64,000 nucleotides of DNA from a virus. Positions 47,610 through 62,308 of this stretch are shown piece by piece (position 1 is the first letter of the stretch; the number at the start of each line of letters is the position of its first letter). Both the position numbers and the translations under genes were made by a program. The stretch lies in IMG/VR virus record IMGVR_UViG_3300035454_000441; one strand, 5' to 3'. The notes beneath the pieces were generated by a model. It saw only the letters and a program-made list of their open reading frames with translations, ran no database searches and was not told where the DNA came from.

Positions 47610-48061
47610 TTGATAAGTCCCTCTAAGACTTTCAACTCCGCTACGTGTTCTTCGTCACCACGACACAACGCCTCAAATACTGATTTGATTCTCCCGAACT
47701 TGAACTTGAGTGCATTGAGGGCATGAATCTCAACAAACTTGTCCTCTAGTGTTATAGCAAGTTCCAGAATACAAGTCAAACTGCATTCCTTATCTCTCAG
47801 GAGTTGGAGCAACGCCTTGATTTCCACCAAGAGACTTTCAGCATACAGACCATCAATCATAGAAAGGTCATATCTATCATACTCGGCTATCTGGATTGCC
47901 ATGTTCAGTTGATGACTGTGAAGTTCTTCATCAAGCATCAGTCTGAACAAAACGTCCGCCACATCTACACGTCCCAAACGAATGGCCTCTTTTCTGAGCC
48001 GATAATAAATCTCCTCGGCAGTCTCTTCTATCTCTTTGTATACGTGCAGGACATTTTTCAT
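47606..48061 (-). CDS. Hypothetical protein (151 aa)
   Basis: ORF track. Confidence 0.4.
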   Translation of the reverse strand: MKNVLHVYKEIEETAEEIYYRLRKEAIRLGRVDVADVLFRLMLDEELHSHQLNMAIQIAEYDRYDLSMIDGLYAESLLVEIKALLQLLRDKECSLTCILELAITLEDKFVEIHALNALKFKFGRIKSVFEALCRGDEEHVAELKVLEGLIK

Positions 48062-48456
48062 TTTAATGCCTTTATGTGATTAGTGGTCACTCTAGCCATG
48101 ATCCATTTGTTATAATAGGTTTCGTCTTCTAATACTCTTCGGTCGATCTGTTCACGGAGTTCAATGTAAGTCATCAATCCCTTGTTCTTACAATAGTGGA
48201 GAATGACTCTCTTGAAGTTGTCTTTACCAAGCTTCTCCACATCCGCGAGGAGTTCATCATTAGAACCGTAGTAATCTTTCCAATCAGACTCTACCTTGAT
48301 GCGTTTCTTTTTGCCCTTGACTTGTTTGGTCTTGGAGAAGTAAAACAGCTTTTTCCCGATGTAACGCTTTCCTGTGACTGTGTTTGTTATCTCATAAACA
48401 AAGCCGATGAAGCCGTCTGGTATCAGAGTCACAGGACCATTCTGATCCTGCCACAT
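48058..48456 (-). CDS. Small GIY-YIG nuclease-domain protein (132 aa)
   Basis: GFVYEITNTVTGKRYIGKK. Confidence 0.55.
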   Translation of the reverse strand: MWQDQNGPVTLIPDGFIGFVYEITNTVTGKRYIGKKLFYFSKTKQVKGKKKRIKVESDWKDYYGSNDELLADVEKLGKDNFKRVILHYCKNKGLMTYIELREQIDRRVLEDETYYNKWIMARVTTNHIKALK

Positions 48457-48620
48457 CACTCTTCATCCAGTTCTTCATCTTCATCTTCTGGTTCTGGTTC
48501 AGAGATATCTCCACCACAAACAGGACAAATGATAATGTCCGAGAATACAAACTGGTCATCCCTAAATGTTAGCTTACCTAAGAAGCCACAGTTTTCGCAA
48601 TCAATCTTTTTCTTAATCAT
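48457..48620 (-). CDS. Small zinc-ribbon protein with an acidic tail (54 aa); below the ORF-track cutoff
   Basis: CENCG...CPVCGG; GTGATG overlap. Confidence 0.3.
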
Positions 48621-48929: not shown

Positions 48930-49565
48930 TTAAACATTTGGTAACATCCCGAAGTAAGTAATGATATGCCAAATAAGTTGCTTCTGGTCCTTGGCGAACA
49001 ACCAACGTTTATCAATCATCTGATTAGCCCAGTCACCCGCTCTGGTGCCACGCTCTTGCCCGATGGAGACCCAGTCACAAGTCATAACGGCAACCCAAGT
49101 TAAAGGCATGTTAGTAGCATCAACCGGTGTATCTGGAATACCATCCCGATTTGTAACGTTGAACTTGTTACCCACCAAAAAATCTGGGTCCCAGTATTCC
49201 GGATGGTGTTTCTCGCTGATGATATGATGTATCGTGGCGTTACTCTGCATCACCTGATTAAGTGGATACGGCTTGTTCAGGTCAAGCTTTTGATAGTAAG
49301 ACCAAGAGATTTCAATGTATGCCCTATATTGCGGGTCCTCGAACTTGGTTCTATCGTGTTCCCTAGACTCCTTGAGAAGTGTTTCCTTTTCAAGCTGATA
49401 AGAGTCAACAATGCTAATCAGGTGTTCGCCAGCATCAATAGACGGTGTGAACAGGTCTAGAATGTTGCTCTGTACCCGGTGAATATGCTTATTGGTGCGA
49501 TTGTGGAAGTGAAGTTGTTTCTCCCTCCATTCTCGCTCAAGTTTATAAATCGATCCCACATCCAT
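48930..49565 (-). CDS. Hypothetical protein (211 aa)
   Basis: ORF track. Confidence 0.45.
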   Translation of the reverse strand: MDVGSIYKLEREWREKQLHFHNRTNKHIHRVQSNILDLFTPSIDAGEHLISIVDSYQLEKETLLKESREHDRTKFEDPQYRAYIEISWSYYQKLDLNKPYPLNQVMQSNATIHHIISEKHHPEYWDPDFLVGNKFNVTNRDGIPDTPVDATNMPLTWVAVMTCDWVSIGQERGTRAGDWANQMIDKRWLFAKDQKQLIWHIITYFGMLPNV

Positions 49566-49926
49566 CAGTAATTTCCTCTTCTTTTAATGGCACCCATTTG
49601 CCATTCTGTTTGCCTTCGACCTTGAGATTTTCGGGTTTCATCATACGCTCAACAACGACTTCTGGTGACTCTTGACCAAGGCGTTCAAATGACTCACGCT
49701 TTAACCAAAGTTGAAATCGTGTACTATTCGCCATCTTCTTAAAGGCTGATACTTTGTTGTCAAATTGGCTTCTCTGCTCCCTGCTTTCACCCACAGCACC
49801 AGATGGTGGATGAATGACGCGAACACCAGAAGAAGTCTTGTTTTGGTGTTGACCGCCGGGACCACCAGACCGAAAGGTTTGTACCCCACAGTCTTTGATG
49901 GTCACCCGCAAAAGCAACTCTTTCAT
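49543..49926 (-). CDS. GGQ-motif peptidyl-tRNA hydrolase domain protein (ArfB/PrfH-like release-factor catalytic domain)
   Basis: FRSGGPGGQHQNKTSSGVRVIH...RSQFDNK matches the RF-1 domain; start at MKELLL one nt after the primase stop. Confidence 0.7.
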   Translation of the reverse strand: MKELLLRVTIKDCGVQTFRSGGPGGQHQNKTSSGVRVIHPPSGAVGESREQRSQFDNKVSAFKKMANSTRFQLWLKRESFERLGQESPEVVVERMMKPENLKVEGKQNGKWVPLKEEEITDGCGIDL

Positions 49927-49927
49927 A

Positions 49928-50956
49928 TTAGCACAACTTCCATTCTGCGAAACGGGCAATAGCCTCCAGTCCGCCAAAGGTATTATTGTTGATGACTTCA
50001 ACGATTTCAGCAACAGTCTTTCCAGACTTCACCATATCGTTGATATCCTTCTCCGCAATCGTATGAGGCCAGAGACATACAGAGTAACCAAGCTTGATTG
50101 TATCACTGATAATTCTGGTAATCTCTCGGCTCCTAGGCTCATTATCCGGAACTACGGTCAAGTTCGTCTTGAGTGCTTCAAGTGTCGGCGTTGCAAACGA
50201 CGAACCAGAAACCGCAATTCCATTAGGGATAAAAAGACTGTCAATCTGCCCCTCAAACGCATAAATCCTCTTCGCATAATCTACCCTCTCCAGACCGTAA
50301 ACACGTTCCGCGCTTTCATCAATCTTAATCGTGAAGTATTTTGGCTCTTCATTTTTGAATGCCCTAGCAGAGAACGCATAGACTCTTCCATGTGTATCAA
50401 AGTATGGAAACAATAGCCTAGGATGGTCATTGTCGAGTTTTGAAAACTTGCCGGGGATAATGTTATTAGTAAACTGTTTAATCTTCGTTGTATAGTAGAT
50501 TAGACTCCACTTGTCTTTTGGAATGAGACGCTTCGCCAGATACTTAGCAACAGGATGACCGGGCTTTAAATCAGCACAACATTTGGTACCGTCGAGAACA
50601 GAGTCCGTTCCAATGAAATTGGTAGCTTGCTTAACTTCCTCCACAATCTCAGTGATATCTGTATGCGGGGTATGTTTGCTAGTGGACTCCTTGTAACGTT
50701 CCATGACAAACTCTTTATAGATGTTGGGTGCAATCTCCTTCAGGAAGTTACCCAAACTCATAGAGGCGCCGCAATGATGACACTTGTAGGAAATATGTGT
50801 CTTGCCCCGATAGAAGTATCCACGGGTCTTTTGGCGTCCCTTGGATACATCACCACAAATTGGGCAAGAGCAGTTCCACAGATATGCGGACTTCTGTTTG
50901 AAGTTCTTCACATAAGGTGAAACCCTCGGCACATATGACTGTTCAATCCAAAGCAT
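49928..50956 (-). CDS. DNA primase (T4 gp61-like; Zn-ribbon + TOPRIM)
   Basis: CPICGDVSKGRQKTRGYFY...CHHCG; 342 aa (same as T4 gp61). Confidence 0.75.
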   Translation of the reverse strand: MLWIEQSYVPRVSPYVKNFKQKSAYLWNCSCPICGDVSKGRQKTRGYFYRGKTHISYKCHHCGASMSLGNFLKEIAPNIYKEFVMERYKESTSKHTPHTDITEIVEEVKQATNFIGTDSVLDGTKCCADLKPGHPVAKYLAKRLIPKDKWSLIYYTTKIKQFTNNIIPGKFSKLDNDHPRLLFPYFDTHGRVYAFSARAFKNEEPKYFTIKIDESAERVYGLERVDYAKRIYAFEGQIDSLFIPNGIAVSGSSFATPTLEALKTNLTVVPDNEPRSREITRIISDTIKLGYSVCLWPHTIAEKDINDMVKSGKTVAEIVEVINNNTFGGLEAIARFAEWKLC

Positions 50957-50957
50957 T

Positions 50958-51098
50958 CTATTTTTTAATCATCGCTTGATAGAAGCCGTTACCCGAGGCA
51001 GTCATACCACCTTGCGGCAACCAACCTTCGCTAATAAACAGATTAACCATGGCTTCTAGTTTTTGAGTGGAAGTAGCACCCACGATTTGATATTTCAT
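50958..51098 (-). CDS. DUF1737-like small protein (46 aa)
   Basis: MKYQIVGATS...EGWLPQGG. Confidence 0.35.
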   Translation of the reverse strand: MKYQIVGATSTQKLEAMVNLFISEGWLPQGGMTASGNGFYQAMIKK

Positions 51099-51099
51099 A

Positions 51100-51371
51100 T
51101 TAGATCCAGAGGATGAACCATCCGAAGAGTTTGCCAAATCCGTAACCAACAGGCACAGACAGAAGAGCCGACGCCCAGAGCAACACATTGTTAGACTTGT
51201 ATTTGTATGAAAAACACTTGTCAAAAACCATGTAGATTGCCACGAAAGCCAACAGCATCGCGAAAATGTATCCCATAACAGCGATACTTGAACCATCGCC
51301 ATCCCAGATAAGACGGTCGAATTCCTGTTCGGTGCGACTGCGATAGATGATGATAGAGTTCGAAGCAAGCA
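51100..51371 (-). CDS. Membrane protein (90 aa)
   Basis: TAATG overlap with the upstream gene. Confidence 0.35.
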
Positions 51372-51818
51372 TTAGAGTTTCCCTTTCATTTTCCAAGTCA
51401 TCCAGAGGAGGTCAAGTACCCAGTCATTCGGAATGATGCCGGGATTATCAGAAACGAATTGAACATCATCAACGTCCAGAACAACACGAAGAAAGTCAAC
51501 CACTGCACCGGAGCGACAAATACCCGCGGTGCAGTGGACAAAGATAAAGTCAATCTCTGGTGGCAGAGTCTTGATGAAGTTGATAATCTTCTTGGCATCA
51601 TCGAAATCGGCTGCCTTGCAATCCATACAGGATGCAAGGGTCATGGTTGTCTTCGGATGAATGTCATCGAACCAGACGGTCAGCACCTTACCGCGAATAT
51701 CATCAACAATTCGTTTGGCATCAGTGTCCAGAATAGAGATGACAGCCACATTCGGTTGAGACAGAATGTATGCAAACTTGTTTTGGAAAACAACTTTTGG
51801 TATCGCTTTAACTCTCAT
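51372..51818 (-). CDS. Cys-based (CX5R) dual-specificity / PTP-like phosphatase
   Basis: VHCTAGICRSGAV. Confidence 0.65.
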   Translation of the reverse strand: MRVKAIPKVVFQNKFAYILSQPNVAVISILDTDAKRIVDDIRGKVLTVWFDDIHPKTTMTLASCMDCKAADFDDAKKIINFIKTLPPEIDFIFVHCTAGICRSGAVVDFLRVVLDVDDVQFVSDNPGIIPNDWVLDLLWMTWKMKGKL

Positions 51819-51833
51819 AGTGTGTATACTTTA

Positions 51834-52439
51834 TCACACCATTGGAAGATTGTCAACGGTATTCTTCGTCATCACCGAAATTACTTTTGACTTCGGCACT
51901 TCATCGTTCTTGATGGTTTTCTTGAAACCAAAGTTACCTGCGGTGTGCCAGACGATGATGCCTTCCGGGTTCATAAATCCGGGTGCCGCAACGGAGCCAC
52001 CATGCGCAAGACCTTGTAGAACAGAATTAACGATATTGGTATCAAACTCAGCCTTGAACAGAATCGGTACAACACCAAGGCCTTGAATAGAAGGAAGAGC
52101 CGTTAAGACGGGCGCATCTGAACAACAAGTTTTCCAGCGAGACACATTGAACAGACTGAAACGCTTTTCTTTCAGCCCATAGCCACGCTGAATCCCCTGA
52201 CCCCACCACTCACCGAAGTGACGACCCGGACCCATCTTGAGAAGTTCGTCCTTGTTACCAAAGCACCAGCGGGCAAAGCCGTAGTTGTCATCCTCGGGTG
52301 TAATGAAACGTGTCCGAGAACCGACGAACAGGTCCCCGTCTTCGGTGATGATAATCTGACCATTTGTACCGTCAATCTTCTCCGTGATAATCATCTCACG
52401 GCTCAAGCGAGGCATCTTTGGAAACTCTGTAAATTCCAT
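51834..52439 (-). CDS. Rnl2-like RNA ligase nucleotidyltransferase domain (KxDG)
   Basis: Motif I EKIDGTN, FGEWWG, motif IV EGIIVW, motif V GFKKTIK. Confidence 0.6.
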   Translation of the reverse strand: MEFTEFPKMPRLSREMIITEKIDGTNGQIIITEDGDLFVGSRTRFITPEDDNYGFARWCFGNKDELLKMGPGRHFGEWWGQGIQRGYGLKEKRFSLFNVSRWKTCCSDAPVLTALPSIQGLGVVPILFKAEFDTNIVNSVLQGLAHGGSVAAPGFMNPEGIIVWHTAGNFGFKKTIKNDEVPKSKVISVMTKNTVDNLPMV

Positions 52440-53740
52440 TATTCTTCTCCCTTAAAGTTCATGACCGGCTTGATCCGGTCAACGATGTATGCAGTAGGCT
52501 CAATCGCGGCTTCGATGATAACAGAGTCCTTATAGGCGCCCGGTGCTTCATCAATTGGAATGCAGGAAGTCCAAATACCCTTCATCTGCTCCTTCGCGTC
52601 CTGAGTGTTCAGAGTCGCCTTAGCCTGTGAACGGGACAACACACGGCCAGCCCCATGAGGCGCAGAACAGTTCCATTCCATGTTATCACGACCCATGGTG
52701 ATTAACAGACCATCACGCATATTGAACGGGATGATAGACAACTCACCATGGTAAGACCGGATAGCACCCTTACGGATAATCCAATCATCAAAGTCAACGA
52801 AGTTGTGAGTGGTCTCAATCATCTGAGACCAATCAATGTCAGCAAACTTGTTGATTTCAGTTAAGATGGCTTCGCGGTTGATTTCAGCGTATTCCTGAGC
52901 AATCAACATATCAACCATGTAGCCGTACATATCAACACCAGTCAAGTATTCCATGCCCTTCGGAACACCAGTCGCCTTCTTTTCTTCCGTGAAAGCGGCA
53001 ATCATATGCCCCCAATCCTTCTTAGGGAAGTTCATCTTAATCATCTCAACATACTCATGCTTTGAGATGGTATCGGTCATGGCGGCAACAGCCCGCTTCT
53101 GCCAGTATTCAGCAACACACTTCCCGAAGTTACGGGAACCAGAGTGAATGGTAATCCAGTAACGCCCATCAGTGACAGACTTACCGACCTCGATGAAGTG
53201 ATTACCCCCACCCAAGGTACCGATAGACTTCATAACGCGGTCATGCTTCACCGCGATCCGATCACACATCTTTTCGAATGCGCCATCGGACATAACGACA
53301 GGCAAGACAGGCAATCCGGTGCGGCTCTTGAACTCAGTGGCGAAACGGGTCAACACTGTGTTGACCTCATTCCAACGAAATCCCACCTTGGATACAGTAG
53401 AACGGGTATCGGTGCCGAACGGAACACCAAGGCGAACTGCCTTGTTGAACAACTTCATACGCTCTTCGGTTGCAAAAATAGTTTCGGTCTCAACCTTAAA
53501 GGGTGCCGAAACCATACCACACCCGATATCAACACCCACCACATTAGGGATAATCTTGTCATTCAGTTCCATGGTGAAACCGATAACAGAACCCTTACCC
53601 GCGTGGGTATCGGGCATGATAGCAATGGGCTTAGTGAATGCGGGGTGGTTGACCATCTGCACGATTTGTGCAACACAGGACTCCTCAACGTCATCAATCA
53701 TGACCTTAGCAGTCGTATATTTACCCTTGATTTCGAACAT
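52439..53740 (-). CDS. rtcB: RtcB RNA 3'-phosphate/2',3'-cyclic-phosphate ligase
   Basis: 433 aa; ...NCSAPHGAGR; overall RtcB pattern. Confidence 0.85.
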   Translation of the reverse strand: MFEIKGKYTTAKVMIDDVEESCVAQIVQMVNHPAFTKPIAIMPDTHAGKGSVIGFTMELNDKIIPNVVGVDIGCGMVSAPFKVETETIFATEERMKLFNKAVRLGVPFGTDTRSTVSKVGFRWNEVNTVLTRFATEFKSRTGLPVLPVVMSDGAFEKMCDRIAVKHDRVMKSIGTLGGGNHFIEVGKSVTDGRYWITIHSGSRNFGKCVAEYWQKRAVAAMTDTISKHEYVEMIKMNFPKKDWGHMIAAFTEEKKATGVPKGMEYLTGVDMYGYMVDMLIAQEYAEINREAILTEINKFADIDWSQMIETTHNFVDFDDWIIRKGAIRSYHGELSIIPFNMRDGLLITMGRDNMEWNCSAPHGAGRVLSRSQAKATLNTQDAKEQMKGIWTSCIPIDEAPGAYKDSVIIEAAIEPTAYIVDRIKPVMNFKGEE

Positions 53741-53800
53741 TACATCTCCCAGAGAATATAACCGAGTAATAAACCCAATAAAAAGGAACTTGCGTCCATG

Positions 53801-54028
53801 TCAATGCTCCCTCATTACGATTTCTTTGCGTTCACCACAGATAGGACAGCGAACAGTAACAGACAGATGGTCATGCGAACCACACAAGTCACACGGGTCG
53901 GATGAAAACGAGAAGGCGTCCTCAGGGACTTCAACTGTGGAAGTCTGATTACAACCAACAGTTTTTCTACCGTTCCAGTGTTTGCGTCGGTCACATTCAA
54001 ACATAACGAAGAACTTTGCCATTACCAT
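53801..54028 (-). CDS. Zinc-ribbon protein (75 aa)
   Basis: CDLCGS...CPICG. Confidence 0.4.
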   Translation of the reverse strand: MVMAKFFVMFECDRRKHWNGRKTVGCNQTSTVEVPEDAFSFSSDPCDLCGSHDHLSVTVRCPICGERKEIVMREH

Positions 54029-54151
54029 TTCTCAATAGCATCTTTTTGAGAGCATTGTGGGCCCGCTCAGGGGCAATCATAGCAGTAACAAAGAACAGAA
54101 CTGCTAACACTGTAGCCGAGATACGCAACATAATTTGTTTATAGATGAATA

Positions 54152-54310
54152 TCATCCCATTGCCTTTGCGACTAGCGCCAGAAGTTTAACACCACAGAGA
54201 GCAAACGATTTGAGAGTAATCGTTCCGTCTCCAATCCACAACACCATTAGAGCAATACCCAGACCCCAACAACCAAGAGTCCCGACCCACCACCAAAAAT
54301 TGTTAGGCAT
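54152..54310 (-). CDS. Small membrane protein
   Basis: Trimmed start MPNNFWWW. Confidence 0.3.
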   Translation of the reverse strand: MPNNFWWWVGTLGCWGLGIALMVLWIGDGTITLKSFALCGVKLLALVAKAMG

Positions 54311-54530
54311 AGAGATCCCAACCTTTATGCGAAGGACAGGCGTGAGTGCTTTCACAGTAAGGCCACCAGATGGCGCGAGAAATGGCTTCCTCTCTCAAGT
54401 CATCGTAGCGGTCGACCAGTTCGTATTTGCGGTTCAAAGCAACGTTGTAGCCACCAGAGTTGATGGAATTTTTCGTCTTGTTCAGCCAGTGAATAACTTG
54501 GGCATTCGTCATACTGGAAAGTTGTTTCAT
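54303..54530 (-). CDS. Hypothetical protein (75 aa) after cassette j
   Basis: RBS GAGGAG. Confidence 0.45.
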   Translation of the reverse strand: MKQLSSMTNAQVIHWLNKTKNSINSGGYNVALNRKYELVDRYDDLREEAISRAIWWPYCESTHACPSHKGWDLYA

Positions 54531-54558
54531 AATTTCTCCTCTCGTTAGCTACAGAAAC

Positions 54559-54587
54559 ACTATACACTAACGAGAGGAGCAAGTCAA
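54559..54587 (-). promoter_or_regulatory. Early promoter, cassette copy j (TTGACT-N17-TATAGT)
   Basis: agtcaa 54582-54587 / actata 54559-54564. Confidence 0.6.
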
Positions 54588-54590
54588 CAA

Positions 54591-55793
54591 CTATTTTTTC
54601 AGAGATTTGTAGTAAGAAGTCATCTGGCCCAGAACTTCGGCCCTCTTGTCACCAGCACTCTTGACGCGGGTGGCATCAACCTTAAACGATTTCAGCATCA
54701 GCAGTTTGGTGACGATTTTAGCATCTTCAACACTGAACGGATGGTCATGACCAGCCACACGAACCAGGTCTTTCAGCGTATCCAGTCGAGTCTCATAAGC
54801 CAGACGGGCCAGCTTGCGCGGGCTCAGTTTGTCCAGTATCCGAAACCGCATATGCAGTCTAGCCGCAACGGGAACGAAATTGTTCACGTGGGCAGAGAAC
54901 CGATGGTCAGCCAGAAACGCCTCAGCGATTTCAGCAGACCGACGTTCATGCTCATAGTGATGCGGCAGAACATCTTCCGGAGTCTCGCCCTTCCCAACAT
55001 CATGGAACAGGACAGCCATGAAGATATGAAACTTCTCTTCGGCATCCTTAGCACGACGAACAGCGTCCATGGTGTGTTCGAACGCCGTCTTCCCGTGATG
55101 GTGTTCATGAGGACCAGCAGTCACTTTCGCCAGCTTCGCAACAGGCGGGAACAGTACTTCAAGCGCACCAGTCTCAAGCATCAGTTCAAAGTAGCGAACC
55201 AGTTGGTCACCCGTGGTGAACTGCTTGTATGCTTTCTCCAGTTCCTTCACGATACGTTCCTTGGTGATAGCACCAAGGTCGGGAACAGACACTTTCATCA
55301 GTTCAAGGGTCTCGGCTTCAATCTCAAAACCGAACTTGGCGGCGAAGCGGAAACCTCGAAGAATGCGGACTGGATCTTCCGAGAAGGCTTTCTTGAACAC
55401 TGTCACCAGTTTCTTCTCTTTGATATGCTCGCCGCCATTGAACGGGTCAATCAGACGCCGATTGGTGATTTTCATCGCCATAGAGTTGATGGTGAAGTCA
55501 CGGCGGGCAAGGTCTTCCTCGATATCAACACCAACCGCAGTCAGTTCGAAGTCGTGATAACCACTACCAGTCGAAGCTTCCTGGCGAGTCAGAGCGACCT
55601 CGTTGCTTTCGATGATGTAAATGGGAAAACGTTCACCGACAGTCTTGAGATTGAAGTGAGCCTCAAACTCTTCAACTGTGGCTTCAACCACATAGTCAGC
55701 ATCGTCGGGGGTCAGACCCATGAGAGTGTCACGGACGAAACCACCGACAACGAAAGACTTTTCAGCGAAAGGTGAATTGAGCAGGGATTTCAT
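54591..55793 (-). CDS. cca: tRNA nucleotidyltransferase (CCA-adding enzyme) with an HD domain
   Basis: GGFVRD, DDAD; HD domain ...LFHDVGK. Confidence 0.8.
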   Translation of the reverse strand: MKSLLNSPFAEKSFVVGGFVRDTLMGLTPDDADYVVEATVEEFEAHFNLKTVGERFPIYIIESNEVALTRQEASTGSGYHDFELTAVGVDIEEDLARRDFTINSMAMKITNRRLIDPFNGGEHIKEKKLVTVFKKAFSEDPVRILRGFRFAAKFGFEIEAETLELMKVSVPDLGAITKERIVKELEKAYKQFTTGDQLVRYFELMLETGALEVLFPPVAKLAKVTAGPHEHHHGKTAFEHTMDAVRRAKDAEEKFHIFMAVLFHDVGKGETPEDVLPHHYEHERRSAEIAEAFLADHRFSAHVNNFVPVAARLHMRFRILDKLSPRKLARLAYETRLDTLKDLVRVAGHDHPFSVEDAKIVTKLLMLKSFKVDATRVKSAGDKRAEVLGQMTSYYKSLKK

Positions 55794-55897: not shown

Positions 55898-55991
55898 TGG
55901 AGGAGAGATAGAGAATCGAACTCTATCCGTGGTCTTAGCACGAACAATTGGTTTAGCAAACCATTCTAGGACCCATCCTAGTTAACTCTCC
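55898..55991 (-). tRNA. tRNA-Ser (anticodon GCU), long variable arm
   Basis: Acceptor ggagagt/tctctcc, T-loop TTCGATT, anticodon loop TTGCTAA, CCA encoded. Confidence 0.6.
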
Positions 55992-55992
55992 A

Positions 55993-56124
55993 TGGCTGGC
56001 TAGTCGGGAGTCGAACCCAACATCTACTTGCATACCGGTACACTTTCGATGTTCCGCTTAGAAAGGCCTGCCCCGGAAGCAGTATCTCCTATCCTGAACC
56101 GTCAGGTTGAAAGCGGTCTAGCCG
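55993..56124 (-). ncRNA. Unusual tRNA-like gene of about 132 nt (canonical T-arm + acceptor 3' strand + CCA; complementary 5' strand only about 130 nt upstream)
   Basis: TTGGG-TTCGACT-CCCGA, ctagcca-g-CCA; cggctag at 56118-56124; internal CCG anticodon-like hairpin. Confidence 0.35.
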
Positions 56125-56133
56125 ATAAACTTT

Positions 56134-56208
56134 TGGTACCCCCTAGTGGAATTGAACCACTTTCTTCGCTTTGTAAGAGCGACATAATGCCCATTATACG
56201 AAGGGGGC
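56134..56208 (-). tRNA. tRNA-Val (anticodon UAC)
   Basis: Acceptor gccccct/agggggt, anticodon stem tcgct/agcga, loop CTTACAA, T-loop TTCAATT, CCA. Confidence 0.65.
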
Positions 56209-56214
56209 TTAAAA

Positions 56215-56292
56215 TGGTCAGGCGGGTGGGAGTCGAACCCACATTGTCCGGGTCACAGCCGAACCGATTTATTCCTTTAATCTTACCACCTG
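56215..56292 (-). tRNA. tRNA-His (anticodon GUG)
   Basis: Acceptor caggtgg/ccgcctg, anticodon loop CTGTGAC, T-arm GTGGG-TTCGACT-CCCAC, CCA. Confidence 0.6.
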
Positions 56293-56452
56293 ATGAAACG
56301 GTAACCGTAGCTTATTTCCAGGTCACTACTGACAAGGTCAAGCGAACACACCCAACAGAGGATGGGCCCTACCTCGTTGCTGTGGTCATCTAGTACACTG
56401 GGGCTATGCTGGAAAGTATTCCCCAATCTCGTAAGGTATCACCACACACACG

Positions 56453-56965
56453 TTACCAAATTCCGTATTCTACAAGCAAGTCATAGGCATTCATATTCTG
56501 AGCCTTAATCTGGAGAAACTCCATGATTGTAGGCTGAGTTGGTCTCTTCTTGAGGTACATCTTAGCCTCAGAACAGGTCATGTCTGCCTTTGCTGAGTTA
56601 CACTCGGAACACGCGGTAGCAGTGTTTGTCCAAGTGTTTCCACCACCCTTTGACTTTGGAAGAACATGGTCAATTGTTGGCTTCTCAACATACTTGCCAC
56701 AGTACTGACAAATATATCCGTCACGAATGAAGACGTTACGCTTGTTCCACTTGACAGCACGACCATAGAACTTGCGAACTGCCTTGATTAGCTGAATGAC
56801 CAATGGCTTGAAATACTTCTCATTCAACTTCTCGCCTGTTTCCTTGAGCGCAACAGCGGAGCCGTTAGCTATCTTAATCATAGCCTTCTTAACCGTTGTA
56901 AAACCCATGAAGGTCATATCATAGTTGAGTACAAGTACATTCTTCTTTGTCTTCTGCTTTGCCAT
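56453..56965 (-). CDS. HNH homing endonuclease
   Basis: HVLPKSKGGGNTWTNTATACSECNSAK. Confidence 0.75.
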   Translation of the reverse strand: MAKQKTKKNVLVLNYDMTFMGFTTVKKAMIKIANGSAVALKETGEKLNEKYFKPLVIQLIKAVRKFYGRAVKWNKRNVFIRDGYICQYCGKYVEKPTIDHVLPKSKGGGNTWTNTATACSECNSAKADMTCSEAKMYLKKRPTQPTIMEFLQIKAQNMNAYDLLVEYGIW

Positions 56966-57012
56966 AAGTCACCATAGTTTAGAATACAATTGAATATAGA
57001 CTATAAAATATA

Positions 57013-57699
57013 CTACTTCAACCTTCTGCCTTTTCGCCATCCATCTGGAATTGTTTCCCCAATCTTTAACTTTTTGTTATCGATTTCGTTTGTAATCCAA
57101 AATGAACCATATTGCGAATTGAGTTTACCCGAGTGTTTGCCCATAGCAGATTCACTCATTTTCTTTTTTGTTTCCTCTGTGTGTTTTTTACCCAAAAAGC
57201 TTTTGCGATTAACAAGGACTTCTTTATTGTTGTTCCAATACTCTTTCATAGCAAGAAGACCTTTTAATCTCCCGACATTTTTCCCATCAATGATACGTTT
57301 TCGTGTCGCTTCGTCTAATTCTAAAAATCGTTCTTGATTGCTAAACGGTGAAACGAGTTTTTGGTAGTTATCATCATATCTTTTATTTTTATCTGAACAA
57401 CAACCCGTGTTAACATGATCCCAACCACCTTCCCCACCCACTTTGAGATTGTAACATTCACCTGATTCAAGTAAATCAACAGTGACTAGTTCCTTCTCTT
57501 TAGTGAATGCTTCCTCAGGTGTACCAAAGATGAATAGAACTTCTTTAGTGAAATGTTCTATGCCATACTTTTCTATGGCTCTTTTCAGTAACTTACCCGA
57601 ACCCACGTAATCATCATACGGATTAGTTGTTTTATGAACACCGATATAATAACGTTCATTAACTTTGTTTGTTGTTTTATATACGGTATAAACGTACAT
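57013..57699 (-). CDS. GIY-YIG homing endonuclease (Seg-like), paralog of 59582..60295
   Basis: YVYTVYKTTNKVNERYYIGVHKT... Confidence 0.8.
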   Translation of the reverse strand: MYVYTVYKTTNKVNERYYIGVHKTTNPYDDYVGSGKLLKRAIEKYGIEHFTKEVLFIFGTPEEAFTKEKELVTVDLLESGECYNLKVGGEGGWDHVNTGCCSDKNKRYDDNYQKLVSPFSNQERFLELDEATRKRIIDGKNVGRLKGLLAMKEYWNNNKEVLVNRKSFLGKKHTEETKKKMSESAMGKHSGKLNSQYGSFWITNEIDNKKLKIGETIPDGWRKGRRLK

Positions 57700-57770
57700 A
57701 CTTTAGAGAGTCCTTTCGCCCACGGAACTTCACTTCTATTTAGTGAAGTTCAACTCTCTAAAGTATGTCA
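57700..57770 (-). promoter_or_regulatory. Nested inverted repeats immediately 5' of the seg-like start codon (possible translational control hairpin)
   Basis: ctttagagagt...actctctaaag enclosing gaacttcac...gtgaagttc. Confidence 0.4.
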
Positions 57771-57774
57771 AAAG

Positions 57775-57861
57775 CGGAAGAGGGGTGGATTTGAACCCCC
57801 ATCGGTTTTGAGACCTACACTGACTTTCGAGGTCAGCCGCTTACCGTTAGCGTACTCTTCC
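57775..57861 (-). tRNA. tRNA-Ser (anticodon CGA), CCA not encoded
   Basis: Acceptor ggaagag/ctcttcc, anticodon stem ctgac/gtcag, loop CTCGAAA, long variable arm. Confidence 0.55.
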
Positions 57862-58113
57862 GTTGTTGGTGCCCTATGCACCAAGCGTAATTTTGTTCGT
57901 ATTCGTCAAAAAAGTTATATGGGTTCACATCACTTTCAGATAGTATACCCTCTTTGAACTCTTTTGTCAAGTGCAAAGCCATTGCTTTGCCTTTTGGCAC
58001 AATTGGACTTCTCATAATCACTTTCTCTAAATGAATTGACGATTGAATATAGCCGAGGGAGTGTTAGTTCCAGAGTGGTCGGCAATAGCCACGTTTCAAC
58101 CGTCAAATTAAAA

Positions 58114-58206
58114 TGGAGGAGCAGGACGGATTCGAACCCTCAGTCCGCTTCTTACACGGACACTTGTTTTCAAGACAAGGCCCCGACCACTGGGGTCAAC
58201 TGCTCC
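58114..58206 (-). tRNA. tRNA-Ser (anticodon UGA)
   Basis: Acceptor ggagcag/ctgctcc, anticodon stem cttgt/acaag, loop CTTGAAA, T-loop TTCGAAT, CCA. Confidence 0.6.
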
Positions 58207-58211
58207 TTAAA

Positions 58212-58652
58212 TTACCAAAGCTTATATTCTAGTTCCACACCCGCACCATCGTATCCCCTTTCATCTTCACTGAACGCGCAAGAGTGGTGTGTGTACTTCA
58301 AGTTTGTTCTGAACCTGGAGTCCTCTGATTGATAGAGATGATACCTCAATCCAAGATTACTTGTTGTGTGAGTATCGTTTCCATCATCGTCACACATAGG
58401 ACTAATTTTTTTCGTGTAGTCCAAGCCAGCGTAAACAGAAGCCCCGTTGTTAAACTTACCAGAACAACCAAACATCATTGATAAAAGAACCAAGAGAAGT
58501 GGTATAGTGACTGCTAACACAATTCCCTTTAAAATACCTTTACCCGTGTCTGTCTTGAAATACTCTTTCAGGTTTACGTCTCGCAAAGACCAAAGCATCC
58601 AGACGATTAGAATGGCCAATGCTGTTGCTACAAACTCAATACCACTAAACAT
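58212..58652 (-). CDS. Membrane/secreted protein (start at MFSGIEFV; RBS AGGAG) located inside the tRNA array
   Basis: N-terminal TM/signal segment; C-terminal ...GAGVELEYKLW. Confidence 0.45.
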   Translation of the reverse strand: MFSGIEFVATALAILIVWMLWSLRDVNLKEYFKTDTGKGILKGIVLAVTIPLLLVLLSMMFGCSGKFNNGASVYAGLDYTKKISPMCDDDGNDTHTTSNLGLRYHLYQSEDSRFRTNLKYTHHSCAFSEDERGYDGAGVELEYKLW

Positions 58653-58691
58653 AGTTGTTACTCCTTTTGGTGTTAGTGATATATTTAGTTT

Positions 58692-58766
58692 TGGTACTCC
58701 CAAGTGGAGTCGAGCCACTATCTTTGCCGTGTCGAGGCAATGTAATTTCCCTTATACGATGGGAGT
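58692..58766 (-). tRNA. tRNA with anticodon loop TCGACAC (anticodon GAC, Val-like; atypical C33)
   Basis: Acceptor actccca/tgggagt, T-arm AGTGG-CTCGACT-CCACT, CCA. Confidence 0.45.
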
Positions 58767-58847
58767 AAAGACGACCGCACATTCTTCTGAATGATTATTC
58801 CTTGTGGGATTTTAGACTTACGCCGAGTTGGTTGTGGTCATCAAAAC

Positions 58848-58940
58848 TGGAGGAAGGCTAGATACTCGAAATCTATACGGAGTCTTAGTCCGTACTCACC
58901 GCTTTCCAAGCGGGACCTGCTCCTCGCTGGTTAACCTTCC
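58848..58940 (-). tRNA. tRNA-Ser (anticodon GGA)
   Basis: Acceptor ggaaggt/gccttcc, anticodon loop TTGGAAA, T-arm TAGAT-TTCGAGT-ATCTA, long variable arm, CCA. Confidence 0.55.
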
Positions 58941-58945
58941 GAAAC

Positions 58946-59020
58946 TGGAGCCCACACCGAGAATCGAACTCGGAACTTCTCCTTACCAAAGAGATGTTTT
59001 ACCACTAGAACTATGCGGGC
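58946..59020 (-). tRNA. tRNA-Thr (anticodon GGU)
   Basis: Acceptor gcccgca/tgtgggc, D-loop AGTGGTA, anticodon loop TTGGTAA, T-arm CCGAG-TTCGATT-CTCGG, CCA. Confidence 0.6.
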
Positions 59021-59062
59021 ATATCTGAGTACTCTAAAAGGACCACTGTTCTGCCACTGAAC

Positions 59063-59200
59063 TACCTGCACACTATTGATGCAGAATGGGAGTCGAACCC
59101 ATGACGCGCGGTTTGGGATTAAATTGCTGTAGGTACTCATTGAAATTATACTGGATGCTTTTCTTCGTGCCTCTACCAGTTGGGCTACCAGTGCATAGTT
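59063..59200 (-). ncRNA. Degenerate tRNA-like element (T-arm ATGGG-TTCGACT-CCCAT; D-arm-like GTTC-AGTGGCA-GAAC lies 3' of it; no CCA)
   Basis: No consistent cloverleaf could be drawn. Confidence 0.3.
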
Positions 59201-59300
59201 GGCGCACTGGGTAGGATTCGAACCTACACTTGCCGGCTTTCACAGAGCGAGTTTTTGTTGCTGAATGCATCCATTTTTGTTTTTACTGTTTGCGTTGAGA
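59200..59300 (-). ncRNA. Degenerate tRNA-like element (T-arm GTAGG-TTCGAAT-CCTAC, acceptor 3' strand ccagtgc, CCA at 59200; 5' half unrecognisable)
   Basis: 3' module canonical; only a 5/7-pairing 5' strand found. Confidence 0.3.
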
Positions 59301-59387
59301 CCTTCTCTCAATAGGGCGGAGTCGAACCGTTCCTTGCCTGATTTTGGTGGCAAATTAAAATTGCTGTATGCAAACAAAAGTTGTAAT
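59300..59387 (-). ncRNA. Degenerate tRNA-like element (T-loop TTCGACT with a weak stem; no acceptor pairing, no CCA)
   Basis: ggcggagtcgaaccg on the plus strand. Confidence 0.25.
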
Positions 59388-59461
59388 TGGCAGGGGATAC
59401 AGGAGTCAAACCCGTACTTGTCGCTTCAAAGGCGCCTGTGCTATCGCTACACCAATCCCCA
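59388..59461 (-). tRNA. tRNA-Gln (anticodon UUG)
   Basis: Acceptor tggggat/atcccct (U1.U72 mismatch), anticodon loop CTTTGAA, T-loop TTTGACT, CCA. Confidence 0.5.
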
Positions 59462-59466
59462 TCAAA

Positions 59467-59550
59467 TGGCAGTCCGTGTGGGAGTCAAACCCACCAAGAA
59501 TTGTTTCAGAGACACTTCCGTACATCGGTACCCGGACAACAAATGGTAGC
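59467..59550 (-). ncRNA. tRNA-like element (T-arm GTGGG-TTTGACT-CCCAC, acggact-g-CCA) with an unresolved 5' half
   Basis: 3' module canonical; no complementary 5' acceptor strand found. Confidence 0.3.
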
Positions 59551-59581
59551 TAGTGTGAGTGCTGATCTCACCTAGTCATTC

Positions 59582-60295
59582 TTATGAGGAACGACCGTTC
59601 ACCGGAACCCTAGCCATATATCTTCCTTTAACCCATCCCTGTTCAAGATAGGTTTGTAAATCGTCTTTTTTTATAGTTTTGTTCTGTTGACTACTTGGGT
59701 TATGTATAAAACATTTTCCATACATGGGATTATTGGGACCCGAACGCTCAACTTCTTTTTGTGCTTTCTTCAAATGTTGTAATGTTTCTTCTGTGTGTTT
59801 TCTTCCCTTAAAAGGATTAGAAGTGTCTAGTGTTGGGCGTATTTCTTCATTCCATCGCTTTAAACCACTACGTTCATATGTCAATTTACCCACAACTGTT
59901 CTCCAAGACTCCCCGTAACGTTCTTTTAGAATTCTATCAGTCGTTTCTCTACCTCGTTTACACAATTCTTGATTTACAACAAATGGATTACCCAGTTTAT
60001 CGTTGATGTAGTCAAACCCACCTTCACCCCCACACTTCAAGTTGTAACACAATCCCTCTTCAAGTATGTCATCTGTTACTAGTTGTGCTTCCATGGCAAA
60101 GGCGTCTTCTGGTGTATCAAATATGAATAGTATATCTTTGGTAAAGTTTTCTATTCCATGTTTGTTGATTGCTAGTTTAAGTAACTTACCAGAACCCATA
60201 TAATTGTCATATGGATTAGTTGTCTTATGAACACCAATATAAAAGCGATTGTTTAACTTATTCGTAGTCTTATAGACTGTGTAAACTGCGGACAT
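59582..60295 (-). CDS. GIY-YIG homing endonuclease (Seg-like), paralog of 57013..57699
   Basis: SAVYTVYKTTNKLNNRFYIGVHKT... Confidence 0.8.
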   Translation of the reverse strand: MSAVYTVYKTTNKLNNRFYIGVHKTTNPYDNYMGSGKLLKLAINKHGIENFTKDILFIFDTPEDAFAMEAQLVTDDILEEGLCYNLKCGGEGGFDYINDKLGNPFVVNQELCKRGRETTDRILKERYGESWRTVVGKLTYERSGLKRWNEEIRPTLDTSNPFKGRKHTEETLQHLKKAQKEVERSGPNNPMYGKCFIHNPSSQQNKTIKKDDLQTYLEQGWVKGRYMARVPVNGRSS

Positions 60296-60360
60296 ACTCC
60301 AGAGTACCTTTCTAATGGAACTTCACTTTTATTTAGTGAAGTTCGATACTCTGGAGTATG
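60296..60360 (-). promoter_or_regulatory. Nested inverted repeats 5' of the seg-like start codon (same architecture as 57700-57770)
   Basis: ctccagagta...tactctggag enclosing gaacttcac...gtgaagttc. Confidence 0.4.
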
Positions 60361-60367
60361 TCAAAGG

Positions 60368-60434
60368 AGCGGGTGTGGGTAACGATCCCACTAATTCGGG
60401 GTTATGAACCCCGACGGCCTCCTAGGCTACCCGC
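60368..60434 (-). ncRNA. Short (67 nt) tRNA-Met(CAU)-like element. Anticodon stem has three G-C pairs (CGGGG/CCCCG), D-arm truncated, T-loop atypical (ATCGTTA), no CCA
   Basis: gcgggta...cgggg-TTCATAA-ccccg...gtggg-atcgtta-cccac-acccgc. Confidence 0.4.
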
Positions 60435-60547
60435 ATCATTTAAAAAGAGAAGTCTTGACTGGGTGGATTGCCTCCCCACCTCTAGTTTGGTCTGTTGTTA
60501 ATAACGGTCGACCGGCATCTAGTGTTTTGTTTCGTCAAGACTTCAAT

Positions 60548-60625
60548 TGGTAGGAACGGAGGGAGTCGAACCCTCAGTATACTTGGCCCTCAACCAAGCC
60601 CGTATGCCAATTCCGGCACGTTCCC
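60548..60625 (-). tRNA. tRNA with anticodon GAG (Leu codons) but a short variable arm (class-I shape)
   Basis: Acceptor gggaacg/cgttcct, D-arm tgcc-ggaatt-ggca, anticodon loop TTGAGGG, T-arm GAGGG-TTCGACT-CCCTC, CCA. Confidence 0.45.
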
Positions 60626-60629
60626 ATAA

Positions 60630-60705
60630 TGGCACCCCGTGAGAGATTCGAACTCCCATCTAAGAGGGTAGAAGCCTCTTGCCTTATCCAGTAGACTAAC
60701 GGGGC
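60630..60705 (-). tRNA. tRNA-Arg (anticodon UCU)
   Basis: Acceptor gccccgt/acggggt, anticodon stem agagg/cctct, loop CTTCTAC, T-loop TTCGAAT, CCA. Confidence 0.6.
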
Positions 60706-60706
60706 A

Positions 60707-61615
60707 TTAAACTTTCCACTTGTTAGTATATTTCATGCCGTAGTTGTTGACGCCTTTCGGTATAACGATGCCAGGTTTCAAGCGCAATTTGTTACCTTTG
60801 AAAGGACTGTAATCTACGTGATGGTGCCAGCGTCCATATCTCCAAACGAGTCTAGCAACATCGGGGTGCATATCTACTAACATTTGTGACTTGTTGATTG
60901 TACCTGTGGGATTAAGCTGTTTCTCTCTCCACTTCTCTTTGTCCAACTCTCCTTCAACGTGGTAGAACTCTTGTGTATTACCACCTTTGACAGTTTGGGT
61001 AGCACACTTACCTTGAAGGAATGCGTTAAATTGAATGGTACAGTCACCATCTTTTAAAACACGAAGACAAATATCGGTATCTTCGTTGTAACGTCCACGC
61101 CAACGATGCTTACACTCATTATGAATGAGCAGGGTGGAATAGATACGTGTATTAGCTACAAAAGCAGGATACTTGGTATTAGGTGCAATAAAGAACCGAT
61201 ACTGAAATCCCGAAATGGGTACGTTTTCATATCTGTCCACAAAGTCTTCGGCAGCCCTAAAGATTGCACCAGACTCAACCCTAACACGTTCATTCTTGTG
61301 AAGTCGATAGAAGTCTTGAATGTTGTCATCCATTACCCAGTGACGTTCAGCACCAAGAAGAATGGAATGGTCCCAACACCAGTTTCTAGCCCGACCCGGA
61401 CCATCGCCGTGATTACTGAAAGGCAGAACGAGAAGAGTTACATAGTCTCTGATACCAAAGTTGTCAAGCGCCTGATCATACAGTTCATAGTCTTGTGGTT
61501 CGACAGAAATGTAATGAGGTACTTTCATTCGCGAAAGGGACCGAGACGTAAACATTGACTCATGGCGACCCTTACTGATGATATAAACTGGGTATCTTGG
61601 ATTAGTCATCTTCAA
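60707..61615 (-). CDS. Hypothetical protein (302 aa; contains a DxD-like VMDDN)
   Basis: ORF track. Confidence 0.5.
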   Translation of the reverse strand: MKMTNPRYPVYIISKGRHESMFTSRSLSRMKVPHYISVEPQDYELYDQALDNFGIRDYVTLLVLPFSNHGDGPGRARNWCWDHSILLGAERHWVMDDNIQDFYRLHKNERVRVESGAIFRAAEDFVDRYENVPISGFQYRFFIAPNTKYPAFVANTRIYSTLLIHNECKHRWRGRYNEDTDICLRVLKDGDCTIQFNAFLQGKCATQTVKGGNTQEFYHVEGELDKEKWREKQLNPTGTINKSQMLVDMHPDVARLVWRYGRWHHHVDYSPFKGNKLRLKPGIVIPKGVNNYGMKYTNKWKV

Positions 61616-61949
61616 ACCACCTCTTCAAGCTATTCGCGTCTTTGTCTAGACCCGGATACCAGATTGTCTTGGTCTTTTCAGTCAACTTCTGGTCGACCAG
61701 TTTAGCGAACTCAAGATAGTCTTCTTTTGACCGGAAAGAAACGATGATCTTCTTAAAGCAGGGATTGTCTTCCTGCTCAAACTCTGGCATACCAACCCAG
61801 TGCTTTTTCCACGCTTCATCTTCCGTGTCTTGCACCTCAATGAAGTCTTCAAGAGTTGGCGGAAGATACTCAACGTCCTTCTTACCGAGGAAGTTCTCAT
61901 ACTCTGTAGACTCGGGCACAACAACAGCAGGGACATTCTTTTTAGTCAT
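61602..61949 (-). CDS. Hypothetical protein (115 aa)
   Basis: ORF track. Confidence 0.45.
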   Translation of the reverse strand: MTKKNVPAVVVPESTEYENFLGKKDVEYLPPTLEDFIEVQDTEDEAWKKHWVGMPEFEQEDNPCFKKIIVSFRSKEDYLEFAKLVDQKLTEKTKTIWYPGLDKDANSLKRWFEDD

Positions 61950-62233: not shown

Positions 62234-62307
62234 TGGAGCGGTATGAGAGAATCGAACTCTCGTTATCACGTTGGCAACGTGAAGTTTTACCATTAAACTA
62301 ATACCGC
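62234..62307 (-). tRNA. tRNA-Gly (anticodon GCC)
   Basis: Acceptor gcggtat/ataccgc, D-arm gttt-aatggtaa-aac, anticodon loop TTGCCAA, T-arm GAGAG-TTCGATT-CTCTC, CCA. Confidence 0.7.
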
Positions 62308-62308
62308 A

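Follow-up and report, generated by a model that had tools for sequence, protein, structure and literature searches.

A candidate translation-maintenance island beside the tRNA array of an apparently T4-like phage

Much of phage-host conflict turns on host defences that cut tRNA or rRNA, among them PrrC/RloC, PARIS, retron- and HEPN-type tRNases and colicin-like ribotoxins, and the well-studied answers of phages are spare tRNAs and the T4 Pnkp/Rnl1 pair. In T4, Pnkp and Rnl1 repair tRNA-Lys cleaved by PrrC, the ends being healed by the kinase-phosphatase and sealed by the ATP-dependent ligase. Here we analyse part of IMG/VR virus record IMGVR_UViG_3300035454_000441, a stretch of 64,000 nt referred to below as the window, in which genes for a CCA-adding enzyme (cca), the RNA ligase RtcB (rtcB), a stand-alone ligase domain (rnl), a small cysteine phosphatase (ptp) and a minimal GGQ (RF-1 domain) protein lie beside a large tRNA array. 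With a probability that we put at roughly 0.55, this region is a translation-maintenance island of a distant T4-like phage, which would keep translation running under host attack on tRNAs or ribosomes.

Several described systems resemble parts of this locus. In bacteria, PrfH relieves damaged ribosomes of their peptide and thereby opens them to repair by RtcB2 (Tian et al. 2022, PMC9304027). Jumbo phages encode suites for RNA repair, described as counter-measures to attacks on translation, in which tRNAs, RtcB, Rnl1/Rnl2 and phosphoesterases are combined with a CCA-adding enzyme, a peptidyl-tRNA hydrolase and ROT/TROVE proteins (Iyer et al. 2021, PMC7824862). An RF-1-domain coding sequence is the core gene of one class of Mycobacterium tRNA array (Morgado and Vicente, PMC5966550), and the tRNAs, tmRNA and release factor of Mycobacterium phage prophiGD54-2 have been noted as 'translational reprogramming' (PMC8092301). 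In this M. abscessus prophage (MW584202), a dual-specificity phosphatase (DSP) gene is followed about 3 kb on by tRNA-Trp, the tmRNA and a further 20 tRNAs; the RF-1 gene, which begins 1 nt past tRNA-Asp, precedes tRNA-Glu and an RtcB-like ligase, in that order, the DSP gene lying 8 kb upstream of this GGQ-RtcB pair. The combination of GGQ and RtcB in a phage, which the original prediction had not recognised as described, is thus already present in an annotated public prophage, and the concept was anticipated in the comparative-genomics literature. Our literature search found no paper that links a phage GGQ gene to RtcB, and no experimental work on phage GGQ proteins.

All five genes named above are present (Table 1), and every sizeable open reading frame (ORF) and all tRNA genes of the window lie on the minus strand. 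The tRNA array is consequently transcribed first (63588 to 55902), with the five-gene region downstream of it; the original prediction had the reverse order, and had the cluster end at a promoter preceding the array. That promoter faces cca, with a ribosome-binding site between the two, and serves cca rather than the tRNAs. As tRNA-Ser(GCU) is part of the array, the array ends about 50 nt before this promoter, and a hairpin that closes it was not called by the terminator scan because its loop is 12 nt long. The promoter motif TTGAC[T/A]-N17-TATAGT, often with TG in front, has 10 copies in the window against 0.35 expected, all 10 on the minus (coding) strand, and therefore represents a genuine phage promoter class; the cca promoter would be of an early, sigma-70-like type. 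A second, identical copy precedes the block that runs through three or four small ORFs, rtcB, rnl, ptp, two small ORFs, the primase gene and the GGQ gene to the DUF5662 gene, and the window holds no further copy from 54559 to 45020. The block is tightly packed, with gene spacing from a 25-nt overlap to a 15-nt gap, and from this packing rtcB to DUF5662 is probably a single transcript. The five genes are nevertheless not contiguous, being interspersed with a gp61-type DNA primase gene and at least six small ORFs.

Table 1. Features of the window (positions on the 64,000-nt stretch)
Feature	Position	Strand	Length	Match or remark
DUF5662 protein	48930-49565	-	211 aa	PF18907, 50.7 bits; overlaps 3' end of GGQ gene by 23 nt
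Minimal GGQ (RF-1 domain) protein	49543-49926	-	127 aa	PF00472, 60.2 bits (cut-off 35); phrog_3122
gp61-type DNA primase	49928-50956	-	342 aa	phrog_47, E = 6e-76; between phosphatase and GGQ genes
DUF1737-like ORF	50958-51098	-	46 aa	DUF1737, 19.9 bits, below cut-off; conserved in related contig L056
Membrane ORF	51100-51396	-	98 aa	Conserved in L056
Small DSP-fold cysteine phosphatase (ptp)	51372-51818	-	148 aa	HCX5R(S/T) P-loop, upstream acidic residue
ATP-dependent ligase nucleotidyltransferase domain (rnl)	51834-52439	-	201 aa	PF09414, 41 bits (cut-off 27), positions 2-169 of 171; phrog_548
3'-phosphate/5'-hydroxyl RNA ligase (rtcB)	52439-53740	-	433 aa	PF01139, 207.9 bits, positions 1-426 of 426; phrog_1075
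Zn-ribbon ORF	53801-54028	-	75 aa	Homologue directly upstream of GGQ gene in contigs L195/L199
Small hydrophobic ORF	53997-54155	-	52 aa
Small ORF	54303-54530	-	75 aa	No family
Second promoter	54587-54559	-		Ahead of block from small ORFs through rtcB to DUF5662 gene
Class II tRNA nucleotidyltransferase with C-terminal HD domain (cca)	54591-55793	-	400 aa	PF01743, 77 bits; PF12627, 40 bits; HD PF01966, 23.6 bits (cut-off 22); phrog_2244
Sigma-70-like promoter TTGACT-N17-TATAGT	55851-55823	-		Promoter scan and sequence; faces cca
Hairpin and T6 run	~55886-55854	-		Read from sequence; closes tRNA array
tRNA array	55902-63588	-		18 tRNAs by ARAGORN, plus tRNA-Ser(GCU)
tRNA-Ser(GCU), type II	55902-55992	-		Encoded CCA; ARAGORN at relaxed threshold, missed at default
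Stretch between tRNA-Val and tRNA-Ser(GCU)	55993-56133	-	140 nt	tRNA-like features
Homing endonuclease genes, one HNH and three GIY-YIG (SegE-like)	56453-56965, 57013-57699, 59582-60295, 48058-48459	-		Within and beside the array
Beta-glucosyl-HMC-alpha-glucosyltransferase-like gene	60707-61615	-		phrog_842; within the array
Ro60/TROVE-like protein	22212-23597	-		phrog_850; 1.4 kb downstream of tmRNA
Permuted (two-piece type) tmRNA	24993-25387	-		RF04321, 104.6 bits; tag peptide GEYDFALAA
NAMPT and NadR-like NMN adenylyltransferase/Nudix genes	27125-28549 and 30134-31165	-		NAD+ salvage
Copies of promoter motif TTGAC[T/A]-N17-TATAGT	921, 3614, 8016, 23961, 32161, 35205, 42924, 44992, 54559, 55823	-

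The GGQ gene starts 1 nt past the primase stop codon, and by motif and domain-3 fold its product is a member of the RF-1/GGQ superfamily (PF00472). The GGPGGQ motif begins at residue 21, with G21, G22, G24, G25 and Q26 invariant in 40 homologues, and the top structural matches are class I release factors. The label 'ArfB/PrfH-like' given to it earlier holds for this domain and not for family membership: the protein scored 22.9 bits against the ArfB model (cut-off 100) and 55.9 bits against the PrfH model (cut-off 166.65). It resembles ArfB/ICT1 in being a small GGQ protein with no codon-recognition domain. ArfB, however, has a strongly basic C-terminal tail, which inserts into the empty mRNA channel, whereas the C-terminal part of the phage protein consists of two conserved helices and a beta-hairpin and is neutral (net charge about 0; family mean 0.1). 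The family is abundant, with 939 homologues and 251 viral contigs.

The surroundings of the GGQ family were compared with those of the ligase-domain family as a control, using 80 IMG/VR viral-contig loci of each; once redundancy had been removed by megablast, 62 GGQ clusters and 67 control clusters were left. At least three tRNAs were present within 10 kb in 18 of the 62 GGQ clusters and in 2 of the 67 control clusters (Fisher's exact test, p = 4e-5), an enrichment that may partly reflect genome size, the GGQ contigs being larger than the control contigs. Genome size does not account for the nesting of GGQ genes in tRNA arrays or for their adjacency to RtcB: a tRNA lay within 300 nt of the gene in 10/62 GGQ and 3/67 control clusters, RtcB was found in the locus in 5/62 and 1/67, and it lay within 1.5 kb in 4/62 and 0/67, respectively. 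This comparative pattern independently supports a functional link between GGQ, RtcB and tRNAs, and it offers a concrete hypothesis for the GGQ family.

Other repair genes also recur at GGQ loci. RlaP-Rnl1-PNKP was found in L127/L128, Rnl1 with PNKP in L185/L186, the same two genes with or without RlaP in L164, PNKP alone in L025 and Ro with RlaP in L179. In L184 a member of the ligase-domain family of the window (200 aa) comes immediately after the GGQ gene, and in L187 one lies at a distance of 3 kb. In L195/L199, a small PTP-like Cys phosphatase gene, a Zn-ribbon gene and the GGQ gene follow one another inside an array of 34 tRNAs; both the Zn-ribbon protein (36% identity over 45 aa, pairwise E = 4e-9) and, at a greater distance, the phosphatase have homologues among the ORFs of the window. 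On the 183-kb viral contig L027, a gene for an Apyc1-like (anti-Pycsar) metallo-beta-lactamase overlaps the start of RtcB (14118-16146), with a GGQ gene 4 kb upstream and an 11-tRNA array 3 kb downstream, an arrangement that looks like an independent counter-defence and translation island. NAMPT and PRPP synthetase genes lie beside the GGQ gene and tRNAs in L149 (6612-8863). We tentatively suggest, as an idea with perhaps a third of the weight on its side, that phage GGQ proteins of 110-130 aa (phrog_3122) form a third stand-alone class of ribosome-rescue factor beside ArfB and PrfH. They would belong to a mobile rescue-and-repair unit in or beside tRNA arrays, partnered by RtcB or Rnl1/PNKP and in some lineages by a small DSP phosphatase and a Zn-ribbon protein. 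Such a unit would reverse damage by ribotoxins or anticodon nucleases and would be the viral equivalent of PrfH-RtcB2, recognising damaged ribosomes in a manner of its own.

The RtcB and CCA-enzyme assignments were both borne out. The RtcB domain is full length, and the motifs D-x-x-C at 71 (DIGCG), NH at 180 (GNHF), HSGSR at 199 and HGAGR at 362, which align to Pyrococcus and Thermus RtcB, would supply the metal-binding Cys and His residues and the guanylylated His. Against the model of the PrfH-linked RtcB2 (TIGR03073) the protein scored 74 bits, the cut-off being 271.8. Five genes lie between the GGQ gene and rtcB in the window, where the operonic pairing with an RtcB2-type ligase that characterises PrfH was not found; the two genes are directly adjacent in other phages. 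RtcB-centred searches covered 8 viral-contig loci and 67 metagenome loci, about 35 of the latter being at least 5 kb long. Among these relatives, at 35-50% identity, a CCA enzyme, a tRNA array or Ro was nearby in a few cases, the CCA enzyme lying 4-5 kb upstream of RtcB in three contig families (L010/L011/L059, L014/L095 and L017/L114); no ligase domain, phosphatase or GGQ gene stood beside RtcB at any of the 8 viral and 67 metagenome loci. As an observation apart, the two halves of RtcB are separated by about 0.7 kb in L014/L015/L017 (the same contigs as L095/L114; about 5674-7890 in L014), possibly by an intein or a homing-endonuclease insertion, and in L097/L098/L101 RtcB is split at residue 179 into two adjacent frames.

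The cca product has the class II architecture of a PolyA_pol head, an RNA-binding body and an HD domain with an FHDVGK motif from residue 263, and in the PDB it matches CCA-adding enzymes. Among the NCBIfam models it scores best with that of the E. coli-type 'multifunctional CCA addition/repair protein' (NF008137; 230 bits, below the cut-off of 451); PcnB and A-adding enzyme models also match, with lower scores, and both CCA specificity and phosphoesterase activity of the HD domain are predictions. The 3' CCA is encoded by 16 of the 18 ARAGORN tRNA genes, so cca is not needed to make most of these tRNAs; the enzyme is more readily seen as a repair enzyme, with the making of most tRNA ends not its main job.

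Drawing on domain identities, conserved catalytic motifs, gene packing and recurrent linkage elsewhere, we infer the following course, in its biochemical activities as in its counter-defence role. A host anticodon nuclease, acceptor-end nuclease or decoding-centre ribotoxin would cut tRNA or rRNA, and the phage tRNAs would stand in for the lost species. RtcB would directly re-join breaks with 2',3'-cyclic-phosphate and 5'-OH ends, while the HD domain of the CCA enzyme would clean damaged tRNA 3' ends and its polymerase domain rebuild the CCA. The minimal GGQ protein would hydrolyse peptidyl-tRNA on ribosomes stalled by the damage, and by analogy with what PrfH does for RtcB2 this release would make the ribosome and its RNAs available again for repair and renewed use. 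A complementary 3'-OH/5'-P chemistry may come from the ligase domain. As read from the genomes, this functional idea is plausible, with comparative support for a core of tRNAs, CCA enzyme, RtcB and GGQ protein and weaker support for the ligase domain.

The start codon of this ligase domain and the stop codon of rtcB have 1 nt in common. Motifs I, III, IIIa, IV and V are present (EKIDGTN at residue 20, FGEWWG at 75, SLFNV at 95, PEGI at 158 and GFKKTIK at 171), and K21, E77, F97/N98, E159/G160 and K173 do not vary among 36 homologues. The chain stops about 25 residues past motif V and has no C-terminal domain for nick recognition and step 2. It had been described as an Rnl2-type domain lacking this part; the nucleotidyltransferase domain and the missing C terminus are as described, whereas membership in Rnl2 proper is contradicted by a score of 15.8 bits against the Rnl2 equivalog TIGR02307 (cut-off 197), and the PDB match to T4 Rnl2 spans residues 14-99 only (E = 0.03). 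The family (about 180-200 aa) is unusually conserved across unrelated phages, with at least 8000 homologues at E < 0.001, about 60% identical, and at least 600 viral stretches (loci L002-L009 and L212-L291 were examined); the literature search found no experimental study of it. An exact-sequence look-up of the member encoded in the window gave no record. The domain probably seals complementary breaks with 3'-OH and 5'-phosphate ends, and the genomic context of its family may also fit a role in replication.

The 148-aa phosphatase is a Cys phosphatase as first described, having the P-loop, the upstream acidic residue and the fold of the DSP/PTP group. Its fold is that of a generic DSP, and the RNA 5'-phosphatases of this group (BVP, PIR1/DUSP11) rank low among its matches; the end-healing role once proposed for it is unsupported. 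RtcB does not need a phosphatase, and the window has no polynucleotide kinase for a heal-and-seal route, the only true Walker-A ORF being PhoH. In relatives without RtcB the phosphatase is kept with the primase, or with glycosyltransferases and a clamp loader. The phosphatase and the Zn-ribbon ORF are the less certain, candidate members of the repair system.

To see whether the region is a unit, we relied on short contigs, L056 and L124/L125, that are syntenic with the window; megablast of the region against 50,697 phage records found no nucleotide-level relative. L056 carries the end of RtcB, four small ORFs, the phosphatase, the DUF1737 and membrane ORFs, the primase and DUF5662, and L124/L125 carry the end of the phosphatase, the primase, a 113-aa ORF, the GGQ gene, an 82-aa ORF and DUF5662. 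In each of the three syntenic phages DUF5662 comes after either the primase or the GGQ gene (L056, 3277-3924; L124, 2499-3107), and a primase-centred search led to more distant T4-like phages lacking the whole gene set. Judged by the gene content of L056 and L124/L125, the phosphatase, primase and DUF5662 genes are backbone, and the ligase domain and GGQ gene are gained or lost singly. The region is thus best described as a mosaic, apparently formed by accretion of individually mobile genes and not inherited as a fixed operon.

Several of these observations weigh against a translation-maintenance island, in addition to the size of the GGQ contigs mentioned above. L056 is syntenic and has neither the ligase domain nor the GGQ gene, and the parts are therefore dispensable one by one; in L124/L125, which belong to the phage lineage of the window, the GGQ gene adjoins primase and DUF5662 and not RtcB. 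No RtcB lies within 10 kb in 57 of the 62 non-redundant GGQ clusters, and all-against-all ORF clustering of 24 loci found no conserved direct neighbour of GGQ except HNH endonucleases. In Cluster C mycobacteriophages the GGQ gene stands between DNA polymerase III and RecA, with no RtcB. Phage RtcBs, including the GGQ-adjacent ones in other phages, score below the RtcB2 cut-off, and in unrelated phages the ligase family is mostly found among replication and nucleotide-metabolism genes (primase/VapE, DUF2800 nuclease, ssDNA-binding protein, DNA polymerase A, Dda helicase, RNR and ThyX). Of the composite counter-defence module originally proposed, then, the GGQ-RtcB-tRNA linkage reappears in other phages, while the idea of a single module is at odds with the mosaic seen in L056 and with the usual company of the ligase family.

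A narrower form of the proposal has a good deal in its favour, if somewhat less than an even chance of being right: only the tRNAs, CCA enzyme, RtcB and GGQ protein would cooperate, the ligase would serve replication or recombination (for instance on RNA-DNA junction nicks near the primase), and the DSP would act on a substrate other than RNA ends, such as proteins phosphorylated by host toxin kinases or a signalling nucleotide. The replication neighbourhood of the ligase family and its scarcity at tRNA arrays (2/67 loci) agree with this, as do the generic fold of the phosphatase with RNA phosphatases low in the ranking, its retention beside other genes in relatives that lack RtcB, and the absence from the window of a polynucleotide kinase that would complete heal-and-seal. 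Yet the ligase start overlaps the RtcB stop, and members of the ligase family occur next to the GGQ gene (L184) or at 3 kb from it (L187); within the L195/L199 tRNA array the Zn-ribbon and GGQ genes come after a gene for a related small Cys phosphatase, and a DSP gene is found 8 kb from the GGQ-RtcB pair of prophiGD54-2. One could also suppose that no nuclease attack is involved, and that tRNAs, tmRNA, GGQ protein, CCA enzyme and RtcB together raise translation and ribosome recycling in lytic growth, for example where ribosomes are stranded on phage-degraded host mRNAs or codon usage is mismatched. Such general reprogramming is how the authors read prophiGD54-2 and the mycobacterial tRNA arrays (PMC8092301; PMC5966550); besides a tmRNA, the window carries NAD-salvage and nucleotide-metabolism genes typical of host take-over, and many GGQ loci have no repair enzyme at all. 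We consider it unlikely here, as broken RNA ends, on which both RtcB and a CCA enzyme with an HD domain act, do not arise in quantity during ordinary translation, and most of the tRNA genes already encode CCA; moreover, dedicated repair cassettes (RtcB or RlaP-Rnl1-PNKP) recur at GGQ loci, and in L027 an anti-Pycsar-like gene adjoins RtcB.

Finally, the five genes might not cooperate at all, the region being a hyperplastic accessory stretch by the tRNA array in which unrelated mobile genes have met by coincidence. The absence of the ligase domain and GGQ gene from L056, the primase and conserved backbone ORFs that separate the parts, the many homing endonucleases nearby and the more distant T4-like primase loci devoid of any of these genes would all be expected in that case, and at none of the roughly 35 metagenome RtcB loci of at least 5 kb does a ligase domain, phosphatase or GGQ gene stand beside RtcB. 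Coincidence nevertheless seems improbable in view of the GGQ-RtcB adjacency in four non-redundant viral contig groups and in prophiGD54-2, the enrichment of GGQ genes at tRNA arrays (p = 4e-5), the run of PTP-like, Zn-ribbon and GGQ genes in L195, the direct adjacency of GGQ and ligase domain in L184 and the overlapping rtcB stop and rnl start codons.

The tRNA array appears to contain at least 19 tRNA genes. The stretch annotated as tRNA-Ser(GCU) also matched Rfam tRNA-Sec with 43.3 bits, below the gathering score of 47. The 140 nt next to it have a tRNA-like acceptor stem (GGCUAG/CUAGCC), a GGGUUCGACUCCC T-arm and a 3' AGCCA; they gave no Rfam or ARAGORN call, intron mode included, and fold no better than shuffled sequence (z = -0.25). 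This could be a degenerate or elaborated tRNA-like RNA, or possibly a putative Y-RNA-like partner of the Ro protein. A use of RtcB in tRNA splicing was considered and rejected, since no tRNA with an intron was found near the end of the array when ARAGORN was run in intron mode. Inside the array are two GIY-YIG genes, one HNH endonuclease gene and the glucosyltransferase-like gene; the homing endonuclease genes are consistent with the region being a hot spot of gene gain and loss, and the glucosyltransferase-like gene hints at phage DNA with glucosylated hydroxymethyl-pyrimidines.

With its gp61-type primase, about 40% identical to the primases of Methylophilales phage Melnitz, pelagiphage Mosig and cyanomyoviruses, the window (GC about 45%) appears to come from a distant T4-like phage. 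About 30 kb from the cluster, the tmRNA and Ro60-like genes make up a second locus for RNA quality control, and the permuted form of the tmRNA points to an alpha- or beta-proteobacterial or a cyanobacterial host. RNR, DNA ligase and PhoH are also encoded. Within the cluster the primase is a backbone bystander, and the DUF1737-like and membrane ORFs are probably conserved backbone and bystanders as well. In the DUF5662 protein, H-x-H, EHD and HH-x3-HH motifs can be made out by eye and recall those of a metal-dependent hydrolase; Pfam and PDB searches gave no support for its being an HD protein or any other known hydrolase.

Among the known systems, PrfH-RtcB2 is matched in the genetic linkage of a GGQ peptidyl-tRNA hydrolase to an RtcB ligase and in the proposed order of events, with peptide release and dismantling of the stalled ribosome preceding re-ligation of the cut RNA. 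The differences lie in the GGQ protein, which at 127 aa is without the recognition domain of PrfH (about 200 aa), and in an RtcB that is not of the RtcB2 type and is set apart from it by the intervening genes. T4 Pnkp and Rnl1 are likewise phage-encoded RNA repair directed against a host anticodon nuclease; T4, however, heals and then seals with two enzymes neither of which was found in the window, whereas RtcB joins 3'-P and 5'-OH ends directly. The suites of Iyer et al. (2021) belong to jumbo phages, while the phage studied here is known from a 64,000-nt stretch; their hydrolase is Pth2 or Pth1 where the window has a GGQ protein, and their phosphatases are of the HAD, 2H or cRec type where the window has a DSP. 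Cluster C mycobacteriophages were considered as a precedent for GGQ with RtcB and discarded: the whole ScottMcG genome is without RtcB, and has GGQ, Pnk, an RNA ligase, Ro, a tmRNA and tRNAs.

The closest combination is that of prophiGD54-2, which likewise unites a large tRNA array, a tmRNA, RtcB, a DSP phosphatase and a GGQ protein; the GGQ proteins of the M. abscessus MabI prophage and Mycobacterium arrays are of the same family as that of the window, with 56-59% identity. Phages of the prophiGD54-2 kind are temperate actinobacterial siphoviruses, in contrast to the apparently T4-like phage of the window, and their GGQ gene lies within the array and abuts RtcB, whereas here it lies 6 kb downstream of the array, next to the primase. 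The window adds a CCA enzyme and a second ligase chemistry. If the GGQ protein does work together with RtcB and the CCA enzyme, phages would possess a 'release, repair, re-arm' pathway parallel to PrfH-RtcB2 and based on a rescue factor of new architecture.

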